Assembly (NCBI GenBank): GCA_047975765.1
Contig: JBKEEF010000013.1
Coordinates: 67,727 to 131,726 of the forward strand
Direction: 5' to 3'
DNA: 64,000 bases
Origin: Alphaproteobacteria bacterium
GTDB taxonomy: Bacteria; Pseudomonadota; Alphaproteobacteria; RF32; CAG-239
Shown here: positions 30,038 through 49,549 of the stretch, piece after piece
Numbering within the stretch: position 1 is the stretch's first letter
Layout of the letters: every line of letters starts with the position of its first letter
Program-made: the position numbers and the translations under genes
The notes under the pieces: generated by a model
What the model saw: only the letters and a program-made list of their open reading frames with translations
Databases searched by the model: none
What the model was told of the DNA's origin: nothing

Positions 30038-30114
30038 GGGGGTGTAGCTCAGTTGGTTAGAGTGCTTGCCTGTCACGCAAGAAGTCGCGGGTTCGAGCCC
30101 CGTCACTCCCGCCA
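30038..30114 (+). tRNA. tRNA-Asp (anticodon GTC)
   Basis: 77-nt cloverleaf folded by hand: GGGGGTG acceptor stem, anticodon loop CTGTCAC, T-loop TTCGAGC, encoded CCA. Confidence 0.9.
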
Positions 30115-30147: not shown

Positions 30148-31296
30148 TCATTCTGACTTTTTATTTTTCTCATTCTGACTTTTTACATATTCAACTAATT
30201 TATTTGTTGCAGTAAGTCCTATTTTTTCAGTTGGGCTTTTGTATGTGCTATTAAACATTTTTTCGCTTTCGTGACCTGTTATTACGATTGCAGCAGCACT
30301 TGTGACACCAGCTTCTATATATGCAGTGCTTCCAGAATGTCGCATTAGTCTGAAGGTATAGTTAAACCCTAGTTCTTGACAAACATTTCTAAAGTAATCT
30401 TGAAAACGTCTGACTGTGAAATCTCCAAAATCATCACAAATGATGAAATCTTTTTTAGATAATATTTCTCTTTCCAGATGTTTTGGTACAGGAAGAATTA
30501 CTTTCTTGCCTAGTCTTTCCATTTTGTTTTGAATTATGCTAAAGAAATAATGGCCATCTTTTTTGTAAAGGTCATCTTTTCTTAGTTTTAACACATCAGC
30601 TGGCCTTTGAGCAAAATATAAATCAAGTTCAGTTCCTAGCGCTATTGCTCTATATGCTTCCGCTTTGTTTTTATATTTTTCATCTTCAGCCATTTCTTTA
30701 GCTTTATTAATAATTGCATGAACATCTTCAATTGGAATATATAGTTTTTCTGGTTTTTTTCTTCTTATTCTCATATTCTCAAAAGGATTTTTCTTTGAAA
30801 GTCTTTCTTTTCTTAGTCCAAAATTGTATATTAACCTTAGAAAATCCATACAGTTTTTAGCCCATCTTTCTTTTATTTCTTCAACCAGATTTTCATATAG
30901 TTTATATGCGATGTCATAATTGAATAAATCTAAAGGAGTGTCGCTTAACATTACTCCTTTTTTGTTTTTCTTTTTTGAAAGAATTTTATAAGCATTTTCA
31001 TAATCTTTCTTTGTTCTTGCTGCTAAATCTTTGTAAAAACGGCTATCAATATATATTGTCCAGAGATAGGATAGAGATTTATTGATGATTAGATCTTTTT
31101 TGTTTCTAAATTCTTTAATCTCTTTATTTAGTTTTTCAGCTTTTGCGTATGCTTCCCACTTTCCAGAGCCAAGTGGAATTGACTTTCTTATTTCTAAACC
31201 TTCAGGAACAAGGCGAGCAGGCATAACGAAGTAATAAGATATTACTCCGTTAGCAAGTTTCTTTTCTTGAACATATTTAGGTTTATCTCTTTTCAT
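30148..31296 (-). CDS. int: tyrosine-type site-specific integrase
   Basis: 382 aa. The C-terminal catalytic region contains LMRHSGSTAYIEAGV and HESEKMFNSTY (R-H-R-Y type). Confidence 0.9.
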   Translation of the reverse strand: MKRDKPKYVQEKKLANGVISYYFVMPARLVPEGLEIRKSIPLGSGKWEAYAKAEKLNKEIKEFRNKKDLIINKSLSYLWTIYIDSRFYKDLAARTKKDYENAYKILSKKKNKKGVMLSDTPLDLFNYDIAYKLYENLVEEIKERWAKNCMDFLRLIYNFGLRKERLSKKNPFENMRIRRKKPEKLYIPIEDVHAIINKAKEMAEDEKYKNKAEAYRAIALGTELDLYFAQRPADVLKLRKDDLYKKDGHYFFSIIQNKMERLGKKVILPVPKHLEREILSKKDFIICDDFGDFTVRRFQDYFRNVCQELGFNYTFRLMRHSGSTAYIEAGVTSAAAIVITGHESEKMFNSTYKSPTEKIGLTATNKLVEYVKSQNEKNKKSE

Positions 31297-31529
31297 TATG
31301 CTGTTTCACTAAAATCCATGTCAAATTCTTCATTATTGTTGTTGTTGTTGTTGTTGTTTCCATTTTCAATAGTAGGGAAGCGATATAGTTTTATTTTTCT
31401 TGAAAACTCTTTGATTTCCAATTTTCCCATAACAACATATTTATTCAAAGTTCTGTTGTCGCCATTTTTGGCAAGAATACCAAGTGTTTCTTTCATCTCT
31501 TTCGGAGTTTTCCAATCGTTATCATTCAT
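31296..31529 (-). CDS. putative excisionase-like small protein with poly-Asn tract
   Basis: 77 aa immediately upstream of int. Contains N9 encoded by an (AAC)7(AAT)2 run. Confidence 0.3.
   Translation of the reverse strand: MNDNDWKTPKEMKETLGILAKNGDNRTLNKYVVMGKLEIKEFSRKIKLYRFPTIENGNNNNNNNNNEEFDMDFSETA
31336..31357. repeat. trinucleotide microsatellite (GTT)7 / (AAC)7 inside the xis-like gene
   Basis: An uninterrupted GTT repeat is visible in the sequence. Confidence 0.8.
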
Positions 31530-32506: not shown

Positions 32507-33142
32507 TCATGCTACCTCCTTGTTAATTATCTCTAGTATTTCTCGGGCTTTCATCTTTATATCTTCCAACCTAGCGTGAGGGTCACAATTACAATCGCTG
32601 TAAATTTCTATGTCATTTATCCCGTCTTTAGCCTGTTGGAGCTTAGCTTGAAGACTACCAACTTGATTAGATAATCTAAATATAACTTCTGTAGCCGTGT
32701 CGTATTCAAGTTCTTTGGCTTCTAGTTGTTGCTCTTGATTTCTTATAGTTTTTCCAAAATCTATCAATTCTTTTGAATCTCTATTCTGTGTCTGAACAAG
32801 CAATTCAATTTGTGAATTTGCAGTGAGGAGTTGTTCTTCCTTTTTCTCAAATTCTTCACAAAGTCTTGAACGCAGCTCATCAAGAGCCATAAGGTCTTTT
32901 TTGTGATCTTCTGAAAGTTCTCTCTCGGAGTTTTCAAAAACCACTATTCCTTCCATTTCTTCAAGGAAATTTCTTTCTAATATTTCTACAGGAGCTTTCT
33001 TTTCTTCCTTACCAACAAAGAAGTCAAAGTCTTTATTAATTTCTCTTGTACTTTCAGATACGCAATCAGTTATTGTAGCGACACCAACGATACCTCCAAA
33101 ATCTAATTCTTTAGGTAAATCTCTTAATCTTTTAATAGCCAT
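32507..33142 (-). CDS. hypothetical coiled-coil phage protein
   Basis: 211 aa with a heptad-rich middle region. Confidence 0.4.
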   Translation of the reverse strand: MAIKRLRDLPKELDFGGIVGVATITDCVSESTREINKDFDFFVGKEEKKAPVEILERNFLEEMEGIVVFENSERELSEDHKKDLMALDELRSRLCEEFEKKEEQLLTANSQIELLVQTQNRDSKELIDFGKTIRNQEQQLEAKELEYDTATEVIFRLSNQVGSLQAKLQQAKDGINDIEIYSDCNCDPHARLEDIKMKAREILEIINKEVA

Positions 33143-33178
33143 AATTACTCTCCTAAAACTGCTTTAATTTTATTAACC

Positions 33179-33631
33179 CTAAGAGCCAGAGCCATCGCCA
33201 AAGCCATCGCCAAAGCCAGAGCCATCGCCAAAGCCATCGCCAAAGCCAGAGCCAGAGCCAAAGCCAGAGCCATCGCCAAAGCCATCGCCAAAGCCAGAGC
33301 CAGAGCCAAAGCCAGAGCCAGAGCCAAAGCCATTGCCATCGCCATTGCCATAGCCATCGCCAGAGCCATTGCCAGAGCCATTGCCATCGCCAAAGCCAGA
33401 GCCAGAGCCAAAGCCAAAGCCAGAGCCAGAGCCAGAGCCATTGCCATTGCCAAAGCCAGAGCCAGAGCCAAAGCCATCGCCAGAGCCATTGCCATTGCCA
33501 GAGCCATTGCCATTGCCAAAGCCAGAGCCAGAGCCAAAGCCATCGCCAGAGCCATTGCCATTGCCAAAGCCAGAGCCAGAGCCAAAGCCATCGCCAGAGC
33601 CAAGACCTAGATATTCATCTTCTTTATTCAT
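33179..33631 (-). CDS. glycine-rich (GSG/GNG/GDG/GFG) low-complexity protein
   Basis: ATG with an AAGGA RBS. 150 aa, almost entirely G-x repeats, encoded by a hexanucleotide repeat. An alternative MALAMAL frame (33145-33603) is also open but lacks an RBS. Confidence 0.4.
33180..33600. repeat. hexanucleotide-based tandem repeat (GCCAAA/GCCAGA/GCCATC/GCCATT units), about 420 bp
   Basis: Direct inspection. Three of the six frames are open across it. Confidence 0.85.
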
Positions 33632-34139
33632 AGGAAATCCTTCTTAAAATATCTGAACCATAATTATTTTTACAAATTTCTAAAAACTCCAAAGGTGTGA
33701 ACCCTTTTTGTAAGTCAATACTTTTATTTTTTACAAAATTTTCTCTTCCTTGTTCGCATGAACCAGTTAAGATAAAATGCCAATTGAAGAAATCTTGACC
33801 TTTATATTTCTTGTTTTTTTTGAAAATATTTTTGAATTCTTTTATCTTTTCATCTATATGCATATTTGCAAAAAATTTTGCCATTGCACTATCTGATGAT
33901 TCTTTTATAGTTTTCCCGTGTGCAGTAAACCCATTAAAACTTGATACAAAACATTCTTCTGTTGTCATATTGTCGTTTAGGATAAATCCTTTTATAATAC
34001 CCTTTTTTATAGATTTTATAAGTGTTGGGACTTTATCTATATAAATAACCTCCATACCAAAAATCTTTTTAAATATTGGTTTTGTATTATTTGGATTTCC
34101 ATTATATTTGAAATCAATTGCCATGTTTAAGCTCTCCAC
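33624..34139 (-). CDS. hypothetical phage protein
   Basis: 171-aa ORF. Confidence 0.4.
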
Positions 34140-34477
34140 TCTGGGACGTTATCTATATTTGCTTGAGCTTCTTTTGTTACTGGGAGCACCTCTATAACGT
34201 TAGGTAGATATATCCCTCCTTCATCTTTTATGGTGACACAAAACTTACAATTTGAAGGGCTTTTAGTTCCGTAAACTGCTAATTCAGAAAGGCTCGCAGC
34301 TCCAGACCAATACCATATACGACGTGCATTTTGTAATATACATTCTCCTTTTTCTAGTTGTTTGATATTGCCATACCAAACACCAGCAGAATATGTTCTT
34401 ATAATGTATTTTTTTGTAGAATTTGTTTCAGTCATTGTTATTTTCCTTAAAAAAATTAGAATATTTTTCTGAACCAT
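34127..34477 (-). CDS. hypothetical phage protein
   Basis: 116-aa ORF. Confidence 0.35.
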   Translation of the reverse strand: MVQKNILIFLRKITMTETNSTKKYIIRTYSAGVWYGNIKQLEKGECILQNARRIWYWSGAASLSELAVYGTKSPSNCKFCVTIKDEGGIYLPNVIEVLPVTKEAQANIDNVPEWRA

Positions 34478-35762
34478 ATTGACCTTTAGTCAATTCGATT
34501 ACGATTGCAGGTGTAATCTCCTTTAGAGATTTTATTTTTTCTGAATTATTACTACAGAAGTTCTTTATTCCAAATTCGCAAGCACCAGTTATAATTCTAT
34601 AACTTTCAATCGCATCTTTTAGAGATATCTTTGTCTTGAGATTCCATTTTTTGAATTTACTAGTATCTTTTGAAGATATCTTGTAAATCAAACTTTCTTT
34701 TGCTTGCTTGATTGTTTCGCCGTGGGAATAAACATTTCCATCAGTGACGATGTAAGTTAATTTTCCTCTAACTTTAACCTTCATAGCATTTTTAAGCTGC
34801 TTAACGACTTCGCAGAAAATTCCATCAATTTTACGGTATTTTCCATTTTGCCAAGAAAATTCAATATTGATTGTTATGCTTGCTCTTATTCTTGAAGATA
34901 TATTGTATGTAGGTTTATTTACTTTAACTTTTTTATGTAGATCACTTCTGAGGTCTAGATAACCACCAACAGTTGGATTAAATCCCTCTGGAATTGATGT
35001 CAAACTACTGAGGTCTAGATAACCACCAACAGTTGGATTAAATCCCTCTGGAATTGATGTCAAACTTCTGAGGTATAGAGAACCGCCAACAGTTGGATTA
35101 AATCCCTCTGGAATTGATGTCAAACTTCTGAGGTCTAGATAATCACCAACAGTTGGATTAAATCCCTCTGGAATTGATGTCAAACTACTGAGGTCTAGAG
35201 AACCGCCAACAGTTGGATTAAATCCCTCTGGAATTGATGTCAAACTACTGAGGTCTAGAGAACCGCCAACAGTTGGATTAAATCCCTCTGGAATTGATGT
35301 CAAACTTCTGAGGTATAGAGAACCGCCAACAGTTGGATTAAATCCCTCTGGAATTGATGTCAAACTACCGAGGTATAGAGAACCGCCAACAGTTGGATTA
35401 AATCCCTCTGGAATTGATGTCAAACTTCTGAGGTATAGAGAACCGCCAACAGTTGGATTAAATCCCTCTGGAATTGATGTCAAACTTCTGAGGTCTAGAG
35501 AACCGCCAACAGTTGGATTAAATCCCTCTGGAATTGATGTCAAACTACTGAGGTCTAGAGAACCGCCAACAGTTGGATTAAATCCCTCTGGAATTGATGT
35601 CAAACTACCGAGGTATAGAGAACCGCCAACAGTTGGATTAAATCCCTCTGGAATTGATGTCAAACTACTGAGGTCTAGAGAACCGCCAACAGTTTCTTTA
35701 CCGAAAAATTGGTCTTCCGTTAAATTGTATTTTTTACAAAAATTTTGCTGTTCTTTATTCAT
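34428..35762 (-). CDS. tandem-repeat protein with 12.5 x 20-aa LRR-like repeats (..SL[D/Y]L[S/R/G]SLTSIPEGFNPTVGG..)
   Basis: A 60-bp near-perfect DNA repeat array translates into 20-aa units. The C-terminal 180 aa is non-repetitive. Confidence 0.6.
   Translation of the reverse strand: MNKEQQNFCKKYNLTEDQFFGKETVGGSLDLSSLTSIPEGFNPTVGGSLYLGSLTSIPEGFNPTVGGSLDLSSLTSIPEGFNPTVGGSLDLRSLTSIPEGFNPTVGGSLYLRSLTSIPEGFNPTVGGSLYLGSLTSIPEGFNPTVGGSLYLRSLTSIPEGFNPTVGGSLDLSSLTSIPEGFNPTVGGSLDLSSLTSIPEGFNPTVGDYLDLRSLTSIPEGFNPTVGGSLYLRSLTSIPEGFNPTVGGYLDLSSLTSIPEGFNPTVGGYLDLRSDLHKKVKVNKPTYNISSRIRASITINIEFSWQNGKYRKIDGIFCEVVKQLKNAMKVKVRGKLTYIVTDGNVYSHGETIKQAKESLIYKISSKDTSKFKKWNLKTKISLKDAIESYRIITGACEFGIKNFCSNNSEKIKSLKEITPAIVIELTKGQYGSEKYSNFFKENNND
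34941..35700. repeat. 60-bp tandem repeat array, about 12.5 copies, coding
   Basis: Units such as AATCCCTCTGGAATTGATGTCAAACTTCTGAGGTATAGAGAACCGCCAACAGTTGGATTA differ at only a few positions. Confidence 0.9.
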
Positions 35763-40929: not shown

Positions 40930-41607
40930 CTATAACTCTTTCATTTTGATTTGGTAATCAATCACCACAGCAGCGATATCATATTCTTTGTCGTCGGGGT
41001 GGAGAATGATATTGTTTATTGTTGGGTTGGTCGATTCGGCAACCAGAACAATTGTGTTGTTATCTGTTTTCATATATCTTTTGACAGTAGCTTCATATAG
41101 TCCGTCAGAGCTTTTTCGATATGCAATGATGTAGTCGCCATTTTCAATCTTGCCGTCATAATCATCTATGCAACAACATATAAGCGTTGTTTTTTCTGGC
41201 GGAAAGATTTTATTCATCGAATCGCCACGAACTCCTAGAGCGAAAATTCTTTTGTTTTTGAGGTTATCATTAACAGGATAATATACTTCTTCCCATTCAT
41301 CTTCAGGGAGTTGCGTCGCTTCATTCCATGCACCAGCTTGAACAAAACCGATTTTTGAAATTGTTGTTATTTGATTATTATTTTCATAGTCTAATTCTTT
41401 GGTAACACCTGATATATATTTTGTAAAGTTTTCTAAATTTATGTCTAAAAATTTAGCAAAAGAAACGATTTCTTTTTGCTGAATTTCCCTAATACCTTTA
41501 ATTATAGCACTTAAATGGGGTGGGGCAATGTTAACATAATTAGCTAATTCTTTTTGTGTTTTTCCAAGATCTTTCAATCTATCTTTTATAAACTCATATT
41601 TTGTCAT
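40930..41607 (-). CDS. cI: CI-like repressor (HTH_XRE plus S24 LexA-like peptidase)
   Basis: N-terminal HTH (KTQKELANYVNIAPPHLSAIIKG). C-terminal S24 with ALGVRGDSM and a Lys further downstream. Confidence 0.85.
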   Translation of the reverse strand: MTKYEFIKDRLKDLGKTQKELANYVNIAPPHLSAIIKGIREIQQKEIVSFAKFLDINLENFTKYISGVTKELDYENNNQITTISKIGFVQAGAWNEATQLPEDEWEEVYYPVNDNLKNKRIFALGVRGDSMNKIFPPEKTTLICCCIDDYDGKIENGDYIIAYRKSSDGLYEATVKRYMKTDNNTIVLVAESTNPTINNIILHPDDKEYDIAAVVIDYQIKMKEL

Positions 41608-49473: not shown

Positions 49474-49549
49474 TGCGAGATGGAGAAGATGTTATCTCGT
49501 TCCGCTCATAACGGAAAAATCGTAGGTTCAAATCCTACTCTCGCAACCA
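49474..49549 (+). tRNA. phage-encoded tRNA with CAT anticodon (Met or Ile2)
   Basis: Manual cloverleaf: acceptor TGCGAGA/TCTCGCA, D-stem GAGA/TCTC, anticodon stem TTCCG/CGGAA with loop CTCATAA, T-arm GTAGG-TTCAAAT-CCTAC, discriminator A, encoded CCA. Only position 19 is atypical. Confidence 0.6.

Follow-up and report, generated by a model that had tools for sequence, protein, structure and literature searches.

Analysis of a 64,000-nucleotide stretch of the genome of an Alphaproteobacteria bacterium (GenBank assembly GCA_047975765.1, contig JBKEEF010000013.1, positions 67,727 to 131,726 of the forward strand; this whole stretch is referred to as the window) identified a hexanucleotide repeat tract that is, in all probability, the coding sequence of a genuine prophage early protein. 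The protein is built of glycine-X (Gly-X) dipeptides and, judged from its homologues, would represent the detached repeat module of a widespread two-gene cassette. In the usual layout of this cassette, a DUF6948 gene precedes a single gene whose product consists of a leader, a (Gly-X)n repeat and a conserved domain of ~150 amino acids (aa), for which the name domain X is used in this report. The original prediction had described an unusual protein; the product appears to be a detached piece of the widespread DUF6948 and Gly-X/domain X cassette. In the window, DUF6948, a domain X without the repeat and a stand-alone repeat are encoded by consecutive, tightly packed open reading frames (ORFs). 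The features concerned are as follows:

33185-33601, strand-neutral: hexanucleotide array of ~70 GCCNNN units, all in one register (plus strand; GGC-NN-T on the coding strand), with nested 48- and 66-nucleotide (nt) higher-order duplications.
33179-33631, minus strand: Gly-X ORF, 150 aa, with an ATG start and a Shine-Dalgarno sequence.
33624-33631, minus strand: stop/start overlap ATGAATAA of 8 nt, joining the domain X stop and the Gly-X start, preceded by AAGAAGGA and the same in Logan contig L006.
33624-34139, minus strand: domain X protein without the repeat, 171 aa from a GTG start or 166 aa from the ATG at 34124 (NCBI MFV0627004.1).
34127-34477, minus strand: DUF6948 protein (Pfam PF22253, E 2.5e-24), of which the 102-aa NCBI version, MFV0627005.1, starts at 34435.

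A search for homologues of the Gly-X protein gave 639 matches. The best 120 of these were classified, and 97 of the 120 showed an N-terminal Gly-X repeat with a C-terminal domain X of ~150 aa. To retrieve phage loci from IMG/VR, a degenerate DNA motif was based on the best-conserved stretch of domain X (WH..LTGSC..GR), and 120 loci were obtained. The repeat was in frame upstream of domain X in 111 of the 120, and eight of the other nine loci were cut by the end of the contig. Of the 81 IMG/VR loci with sequence 5' of the domain X gene, 66 had DUF6948 as the adjoining gene there, and it occupied the same place in L004, L005, L110 and L127. No other neighbouring gene was conserved across the IMG/VR loci. 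Family-wide, the X position is most often S, Y or D, followed by N, C and F. The family was defined as having Gly and X alternate over 7 units or more, with S, D, N, Y or F in most X positions, and the 71 units of the window tract place it within this definition. Domain X is present in the same cassette and DUF6948 is immediately upstream; covalent fusion of the repeat is absent.

More than 100 homologues join the repeat to a conserved domain without a change of frame, and on this comparative evidence the Gly-X frame is the coding frame of the tract, which bears out the initial preference for the Gly-rich frame as the translated one. The three ORFs originally reported were all present; the two in addition to the Gly-X ORF are:

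33145-33603, minus strand: 'MALA' ORF, 152 aa, with a TTG start.
33369-33647, plus strand: 'PEPKP' ORF, 92 aa, with a TTG start.

The description of the tract as open in three frames proved to be an understatement. Six-frame translation showed five of the six frames to be open along the whole tract, and the sixth (PEPKP) to be broken once, by a lone TAG that arises from the single Tyr codon of the tract. The five-frame openness results from the GGC-NN-T composition and is therefore not evidence of multiple coding. An ATG with a Shine-Dalgarno-like sequence (AAGAAGGA) 6 nt upstream was found in the Gly-X frame only, as had been claimed. The antisense frames and the WLW frame contain neither an ATG nor a GTG start, and no frame other than Gly-X has a ribosome-binding site. 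The 8-nt overlap is an arrangement typical of translational coupling. Since the Gly-X ATG overlaps the domain X stop and has a good ribosome-binding site, the stand-alone repeat is very likely made by translation coupled to domain X. The Gly-X frame is open for just four codons 5' of its ATG. Further upstream, the domain X ATG (34124) follows the DUF6948 stop by 2 nt.

In the NCBI annotation, the order of accessions places the protein MFV0627003.1 (ACK5N8_06625) between the 211-aa gene 3' of the repeat and the domain X gene, with the flanking locus tags ACK5N8_06620 and ACK5N8_06630. Exact look-ups of the Gly-X ORF, the MALA ORF (with five alternative starts) and the PEPKP ORF in the protein collection gave no match. 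A 444-aa repeat protein encoded nearby is likewise missing from the collection, and these absences are thus uninformative on the frame of ACK5N8_06625.

The Gly-X protein has a predicted length of 150 aa and a mass of 13.1 kDa, with a net charge of -14.5, no Cys and one Lys. It comprises an 8-aa leader-like N-terminus (MNKEDEYL) and 71 Gly-X dipeptides, in which X is S (27), F (18), D (12), N (12), Y (1) or L (1). The 18 GFG motifs are mostly 4-6 residues apart. A leader consensus of ME..[IV][KE].FL was derived from 161 leaders, and the window protein fits it only loosely, with Y-L in place of F-L. The domain X ORF and the Gly-X ORF of the window both begin with leader-like segments. The AlphaFold model from the single sequence had a mean pLDDT of 36.7 and no secondary structure. 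The 150-aa protein is thus predicted to be disordered, as had been proposed; a single-sequence model is consistent with disorder and is weak evidence for it.

The search of Pfam, NCBIfam, PHROGs and PADLOC with the Gly-X protein gave nothing meaningful. A Pfam match to PF22807 (TrAA12-like) scored 24.9 bits against a cut-off of 30.9, was limited to a glycine-rich stretch of the profile and recurred in every Gly-X protein tested; it was dismissed as a low-complexity artefact. The sequence matches in the PDB were low-complexity noise. A collagen-like phage protein (Gly-X-Y) was excluded, as the period is two residues (6 nt) throughout. A precursor of the microcin B17 type (thiazole/oxazole) was also rejected, with no Cys in the protein and no YcaO-type cyclodehydratase or dehydrogenase among the neighbouring genes scanned.

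At the DNA level, the repeat tract was confirmed where the original prediction had placed it. Tandem Repeats Finder reported a single array at 33182-33603 with nested periods of 12, 18, 30, 48 and 66 nt and scores of 383-478. A search of the 64-kb window with the pattern (GCCNNN)4GCC gave 66 overlapping matches, all in one register, at 33185-33601. There were no further matches outside the tract, and therefore no second copy of the array in the window; 100 shuffles gave no match, so that chance alone would not be expected to produce any. On the minus strand, the tract consists of 71 hexamers of six types: GGCTCT (27), GGCTTT (18), GGCGAT (12), GGCAAT (12), GGCTAT (1) and GGTCTT (1). The longest exact internal duplications are 70 nt at an offset of 66 and 64 nt at an offset of 48. 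The Logan short-read assembly of the same run (SRR30067233; contigs L001 and L006) was used for comparison. It is identical to the window on both flanks, yet breaks 30 nt into the tract on each side; the number of repeats is thus not independently confirmed.

No Rfam match was found for the tract, and the fold of its RNA was no better than that of shuffled sequence (z = +0.39). Scans for a promoter or terminator near the Gly-X gene gave counts at or below the shuffle expectation, and separation of the gene from the operon by such a signal was rejected on these counts. A target of a diversity-generating retroelement was likewise rejected: the 64-kb window contains the array only once, and no reverse transcriptase was found among the 20 neighbouring proteins to which the scan was confined.

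The length of the repeat varies widely. Only two distant relatives (L002 and L127) were found when genome, viral and metagenome data were scanned with the protein of domain X, and repeat length, which the original prediction had proposed to check in related phages, was therefore assessed across the family and not in direct relatives; at this level it was hypervariable. Among the 111 IMG/VR loci, the median repeat length was 46 aa, with extremes of 14 and 120 aa, and the 144 aa of the window are the longest seen. Within clusters of domain X at least 95% identical, the repeats spanned 50-98 aa and 46-96 aa. In one such cluster, the lengths were 50, 58, 70, 86, 88, 94 and 98 aa, and nearly every pair differed. 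P0127 and P0128 (266 and 220 aa, respectively) differ by 46 repeat residues and otherwise by one substitution. All of the length differences keep the frame.

The codon usage of the tract is nearly uniform, with GGC for 70 of the 71 Gly codons and TCT for all 27 Ser codons. In comparison, GGC accounts for 113 of the 773 Gly codons (15%) in the long ORFs of the window, where the Ser codons are mixed, in a genome with a GC content of 33%. Two further tracts were compared (L004, 8001-8756, and L005, 8001-8786). L004 (33% GC) used GGC for 44 of 45 Gly codons and AGT for Ser, and L005 (52% GC) used GGC for 46 of 46 and TCC for Ser. Across the phage loci, the share of GGC among Gly codons was 86% in the repeats and 39% in the portion of these genes that encodes domain X. 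The share was below 80% in 17 tracts, and several tracts had no GGC and used GGT or GGA instead. Each tract uses essentially one codon per amino acid. The simplest reading is that the array evolves by slippage or unequal recombination (concerted evolution) together with a preference for GGC, and this preference may reflect translation by tRNA-Gly(GCC). An obligatory GGC signal in the DNA was rejected, as some lineages use no GGC.

The split arrangement of the window is not confined to it. An unrelated IMG/VR phage contig (L110, 972-3822) encodes DUF6948, a domain X without the repeat, and an overlapping Gly-X-only ORF, together with three more. These Gly-X-only ORFs are of 80, 110, 66 and 74 aa; three have a clear ME..EF[IL]KN leader, and the overlap with domain X is 17 nt. 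This suggests that mini-proteins consisting of a leader and a repeat are a recurring form. In the window, the repeat ORF is placed after domain X and in a different frame from it. The second-best match to the window domain X, P0132, has the same order within one protein, in which domain X comes first and a Gly-X repeat is fused to its C-terminal end. With the standard layout in L127, the closest relative found, the split represents a derived condition.

Several observations weigh against the tract being the gene of a genuine, functional early protein. L127 is the closest relative found (54% identity) and has the standard fused layout, and with the fused N-terminal layout in most relatives, the stand-alone ORF could be a by-product of rearrangement. 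The array keeps its frames open, so that an intact ORF alone says nothing on selection. While the junctions of the tract were confirmed by the Logan assembly, the copy number of its interior (33214-33572) comes from the metagenome-assembled genome alone, and part of the length variation in the family could be an artefact of metagenome assembly. With regard to function, domain X had no sequence match in the PDB, Pfam, NCBIfam, PHROGs or PADLOC, and a Foldseek search of its model against the solved PDB structures gave no match. DUF6948 matched only Pfam PF22253, and the searches of PDB sequences, NCBIfam, PHROGs and PADLOC were empty. The idea that the repeat associates with itself draws on composition, a single-sequence prediction of disorder and an analogy with eukaryotic low-complexity domains. 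Some of these points would fit a non-functional relic, left by fission or rearrangement of an ancestral leader-repeat-domain X gene. A relic would stay open, since hexamer arrays cannot easily acquire stop codons and five frames are open regardless of selection. The dominance of the fused layout, including that of L127, agrees with such an origin, as does the start of the downstream 211-aa gene, an apparent fragment of another domain (weak phrog_3193 match) that hints at local rearrangement. We nevertheless consider a relic distinctly unlikely. The ATG, the well-spaced Shine-Dalgarno sequence and the coupled-type stop/start overlap have all been kept, and the repeat is the longest in the family (144 aa versus a maximum of 120) with recent exact duplications of 64-70 nt, which points to expansion and not decay. 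Moreover, the same split is found independently in L110, and the same order of domains is found fused in P0132.

The natural domain X-(Gly-X)n fusion in P0132 also bears on whether domain X and the repeat of the window are one polypeptide, produced by a +1 frameshift in the 17-nt overlap region or concealed by a one-base sequencing error. The two ORFs overlap by 8 nt, and as the Gly-X frame is open for four codons 5' of its ATG, a shift would be confined to that interval. This is very improbable given the canonical Shine-Dalgarno sequence and ATG, the L110 locus that likewise has two ORFs with a 17-nt overlap, and the agreement of the two assemblies base for base at the junction, though both derive from the same reads. 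No recognisable slippery or shift-prone motif was seen when the junction sequence was read directly. Harder still to credit is a role for the DNA or RNA itself, for instance as a hotspot of recombination, as an array that binds proteins or as a site at which mutagenesis is directed, or translation of the MALA or antisense PEPKP frame; either would make the Gly-X ORF incidental. The five open frames of six, the use of a single codon for each amino acid without any synonymous change in 143 codons, the 70 of 71 GGC codons in the tract against 15% in the genome, and the family-wide excess of GGC in the repeats (86% versus 39%) could all be seen in that light. It is the peptide pattern, however, that is conserved across phages and not the DNA, since some lineages have 0% GGC and Ser is encoded by TCT, AGT or TCC. 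More than 100 homologues have the Gly-X frame running on into a conserved folded domain, no ATG or GTG is present in the antisense and WLW frames, and the non-Gly-X frames have no ribosome-binding site. As the window has no further copy to act as the template repeat of a retroelement, and as neither an Rfam match nor an excess of RNA structure was found, the DNA-level function offered as an alternative in the original prediction was unsupported. The reading of the tract as the gene of a genuine early protein is thus retained.

Domain X was assigned to the 171-aa ORF of the window by BLASTP against P0005 (39% identity, E 7e-37). An alignment including the 171-aa and 444-aa proteins of the window showed the invariant residues D35, H74, K88, T125, G126, C128, G131 and T148. 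The AlphaFold model of the domain has a pLDDT of 88, with a beta-sheet at residues 24-75 followed by helices. Judged from the alignment, the invariant Asp35, His74, Lys88, Thr125 and Cys128 could mark an active site, possibly that of a Cys-His-Asp enzyme. A HMMER search of 1.84 billion cluster representatives (50% identity clusters) found 555 domain X proteins, and an N-terminal repeat was present in 94 of the best 149 of these 555. Among predicted viral structures (BFVD), the domain matched only unannotated or mis-named entries ('Lamprin', 'E3 ubiquitin-protein ligase'). Neither domain X nor DUF6948 matched an anti-phage defence family in PADLOC.

The repeat was also found in other fusions. 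It is fused to DUF6948 on either side (P0042, P0023, P0069), and PHROG 18306 represents the form with the repeat and DUF6948, being matched by P0042, P0021 and P0096; the Gly-X and DUF6948 proteins of the window had no PHROG match at E<=0.01. Fusions to DUF7666, DUF6745 and TIGR02996 (the latter with DUF6948) were also seen. The Gly-X repeat thus looks like a mobile module common to many uncharacterised families. P0069, P0096, P0021 and P0013 combine the repeat with TIGR02996, DUF7666, DUF6745 and a 'C..G.LHAT' domain, and such proteins are known from both phages and bacteria, planctomycete-like genomes among the latter. The databases already know pieces of the system, namely Pfam DUF6948, PHROG 18306 and BFVD models with misleading names. 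Domain X is absent from the four family libraries searched. No curated database has a name for domain X or a function for any of the parts, and DUF6948 and the form with the repeat and DUF6948 are carried in Pfam and PHROGs as entries of unknown function. The literature search found no paper on DUF6948, DUF7666, DUF6745, TIGR02996, phage Gly-X repeat proteins or phage glycine-rich condensates.

Proteins that are fused in some genomes usually cooperate where they are separate. By this 'Rosetta-stone' argument, the Gly-X repeat, domain X and DUF6948 would serve one shared task, and the three parts may act together because they are fused in several orders. The repeat itself is more likely an autonomous, disordered, acidic module with regular aromatics (GFG here, GYG elsewhere) than a structured domain or mere linker, since it tolerates lengths from 7 to more than 70 units and is found at either end of a partner or as a separate polypeptide. 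Regular aromatics in a glycine-rich, polar and acidic background would resemble cohesive low-complexity domains. By analogy, the repeat might associate weakly and multivalently with itself, with other Gly-X-bearing proteins or with a partner, a mechanism that we prefer to others but put forward as tentative and on the whole doubtful. A role in phase separation or mimicry, which the original prediction had suggested, is conceivable. Such association could tether or concentrate domain X and DUF6948 early in infection, within an accessory host-takeover region. A more elaborate version, which we regard as unlikely, is a three-part early system in which a self-associating acidic repeat with evenly spaced aromatics would form a condensate or gel, as a bacterial-virus counterpart of the eukaryotic FG/GY low-complexity scaffolds, and would concentrate or regulate a possibly enzymatic domain X. 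A contingency locus is a gene with a fast-changing repeat length that alters its function; in this version the length of the repeat would be tuned by hexamer slippage in the manner of such a locus, and the split form would correspond to action in trans.

The nearest known counterparts are uncharacterised phage (Gly-X)n and domain X proteins, including BFVD A0A8S5SZK3 (mis-named 'Lamprin', from Siphoviridae sp. ct6h44), P0005, P0017 and P0127, which have the same Gly-X array with X from S, D, N, Y and F. They share with the window DUF6948/domain X neighbours, a leader-like N-terminus of only loose resemblance and an early or replication-region location in tailed phages. The window protein differs from them in being a separate polypeptide after domain X, in being longer than the 111 measured repeats and in being Phe-rich instead of Tyr-rich. 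The Ser-Asp (R/SD) repeats of staphylococcal ClfA/Sdr form the wall-spanning stalk of secreted adhesins with a signal peptide and an LPXTG motif. The window repeat is like these in being a long dipeptide repeat with periodic, frame-keeping DNA units, in the length variation between strains and in its flexible, non-globular character, but it is Gly-X, has no signal peptide and is a cytoplasmic early phage product.

The FG-repeat nucleoporins, the [G/S]Y[G/S] segments of FUS/hnRNP, the plant glycine-rich proteins and lamprin are glycine-rich low-complexity or structural proteins, and glycine-rich polyproline II segments in condensates have reportedly been reviewed. In common with the FG-nucleoporins and FUS, the window protein is glycine-rich, polar, predicted to be disordered and length-tolerant, with aromatic 'stickers' (GFG/GYG) every 4-6 residues. 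There is no homology, however, and the strict two-residue period, the strong negative charge and the lack of Gln, Pro and Arg in the window protein set it apart, the likeness being one of composition and predicted disorder. The C9orf72 GGGGCC expansion is pathological and non-coding, and undergoes AUG-less translation into dipeptide-repeat proteins from several frames. It resembles the window tract as a hexanucleotide repeat open in sense and antisense, each frame specifying another dipeptide repeat, whereas the window tract has a normal start and ribosome-binding site, one frame conserved at the protein level and no sign that the other frames are used.

The cassette is present in hundreds of tailed phages, which come from metagenomes of the gut, of soil and of aquatic habitats. 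The window offers a natural experiment in which the repeat, domain X and DUF6948 are three separate genes that can be individually manipulated. Should the repeat turn out to associate with itself or to work as a decoy, phages would possess a host-takeover tool of a new kind, which would also be a simple prokaryotic model of low-complexity behaviour. If it were a mere spacer, the family would still be useful for annotation, since short-read assemblies break at such tracts, which are easily given wrong names ('Lamprin', 'TrAA12-like') or a wrong frame.

The prophage occupies a region of the window in which a tRNA-Asp gene (30038-30114) adjoins a tyrosine integrase gene (30148-31296). The repeat gene is part of a leftward, minus-strand early operon running from a CI-like repressor to the integrase beside tRNA-Asp, in agreement with its predicted placement in the early operon. 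The order of the genes is CI-like repressor, YqaJ exonuclease, DUF1351, RecT, a Bro-N anti-repressor-like gene, the 444-aa leucine-rich-repeat (LRR)-like gene, DUF6948, the 171-aa ORF, the Gly-X ORF and small ORFs. A megablast search of a phage collection for relatives of the prophage returned only a chance 63-bp match of the tRNA type, and tblastn with the protein, under a low-complexity filter, returned nothing. Two further features of the operon are:

40930-41607, minus strand: CI-like repressor with a helix-turn-helix and an S24 peptidase domain, which heads the leftward operon.
34428-35762, minus strand: 444-aa second paralogue of domain X, with 13 near-identical LRR-like units of ~20 aa (SLTSIPEGFNPTVGGSLDL) followed by a C-terminal domain X.

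The prophage thus holds two domain X genes, each tied to another kind of repeat. The C-terminus of the 444-aa protein is a divergent copy of domain X (BLASTP with the 171-aa protein, E 1e-8), and the architecture of the whole protein was also found in P0385 and in the BFVD matches named E3 ligase/SspH2 LRR. Logan contig L006 also breaks inside this LRR-like gene (34977). The first ~35 residues of the 211-aa gene 3' of the repeat (32507-33142, minus strand) resemble the end of another phage domain. The weak match is to positions 150-173 of the phrog_3193 profile and is followed by a long helical, coiled-coil-like region; the start of this gene may be the scar of a local rearrangement. Beside the integrase, a 77-aa ORF (31296-31529, minus strand), possibly of the excisionase type, contains a run of nine asparagines (NGNNNNNNNNNEEF). 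The prophage also contains a tRNA-Met gene (49474-49549, plus strand), which is flanked by plus-strand genes and lies upstream of the late region.

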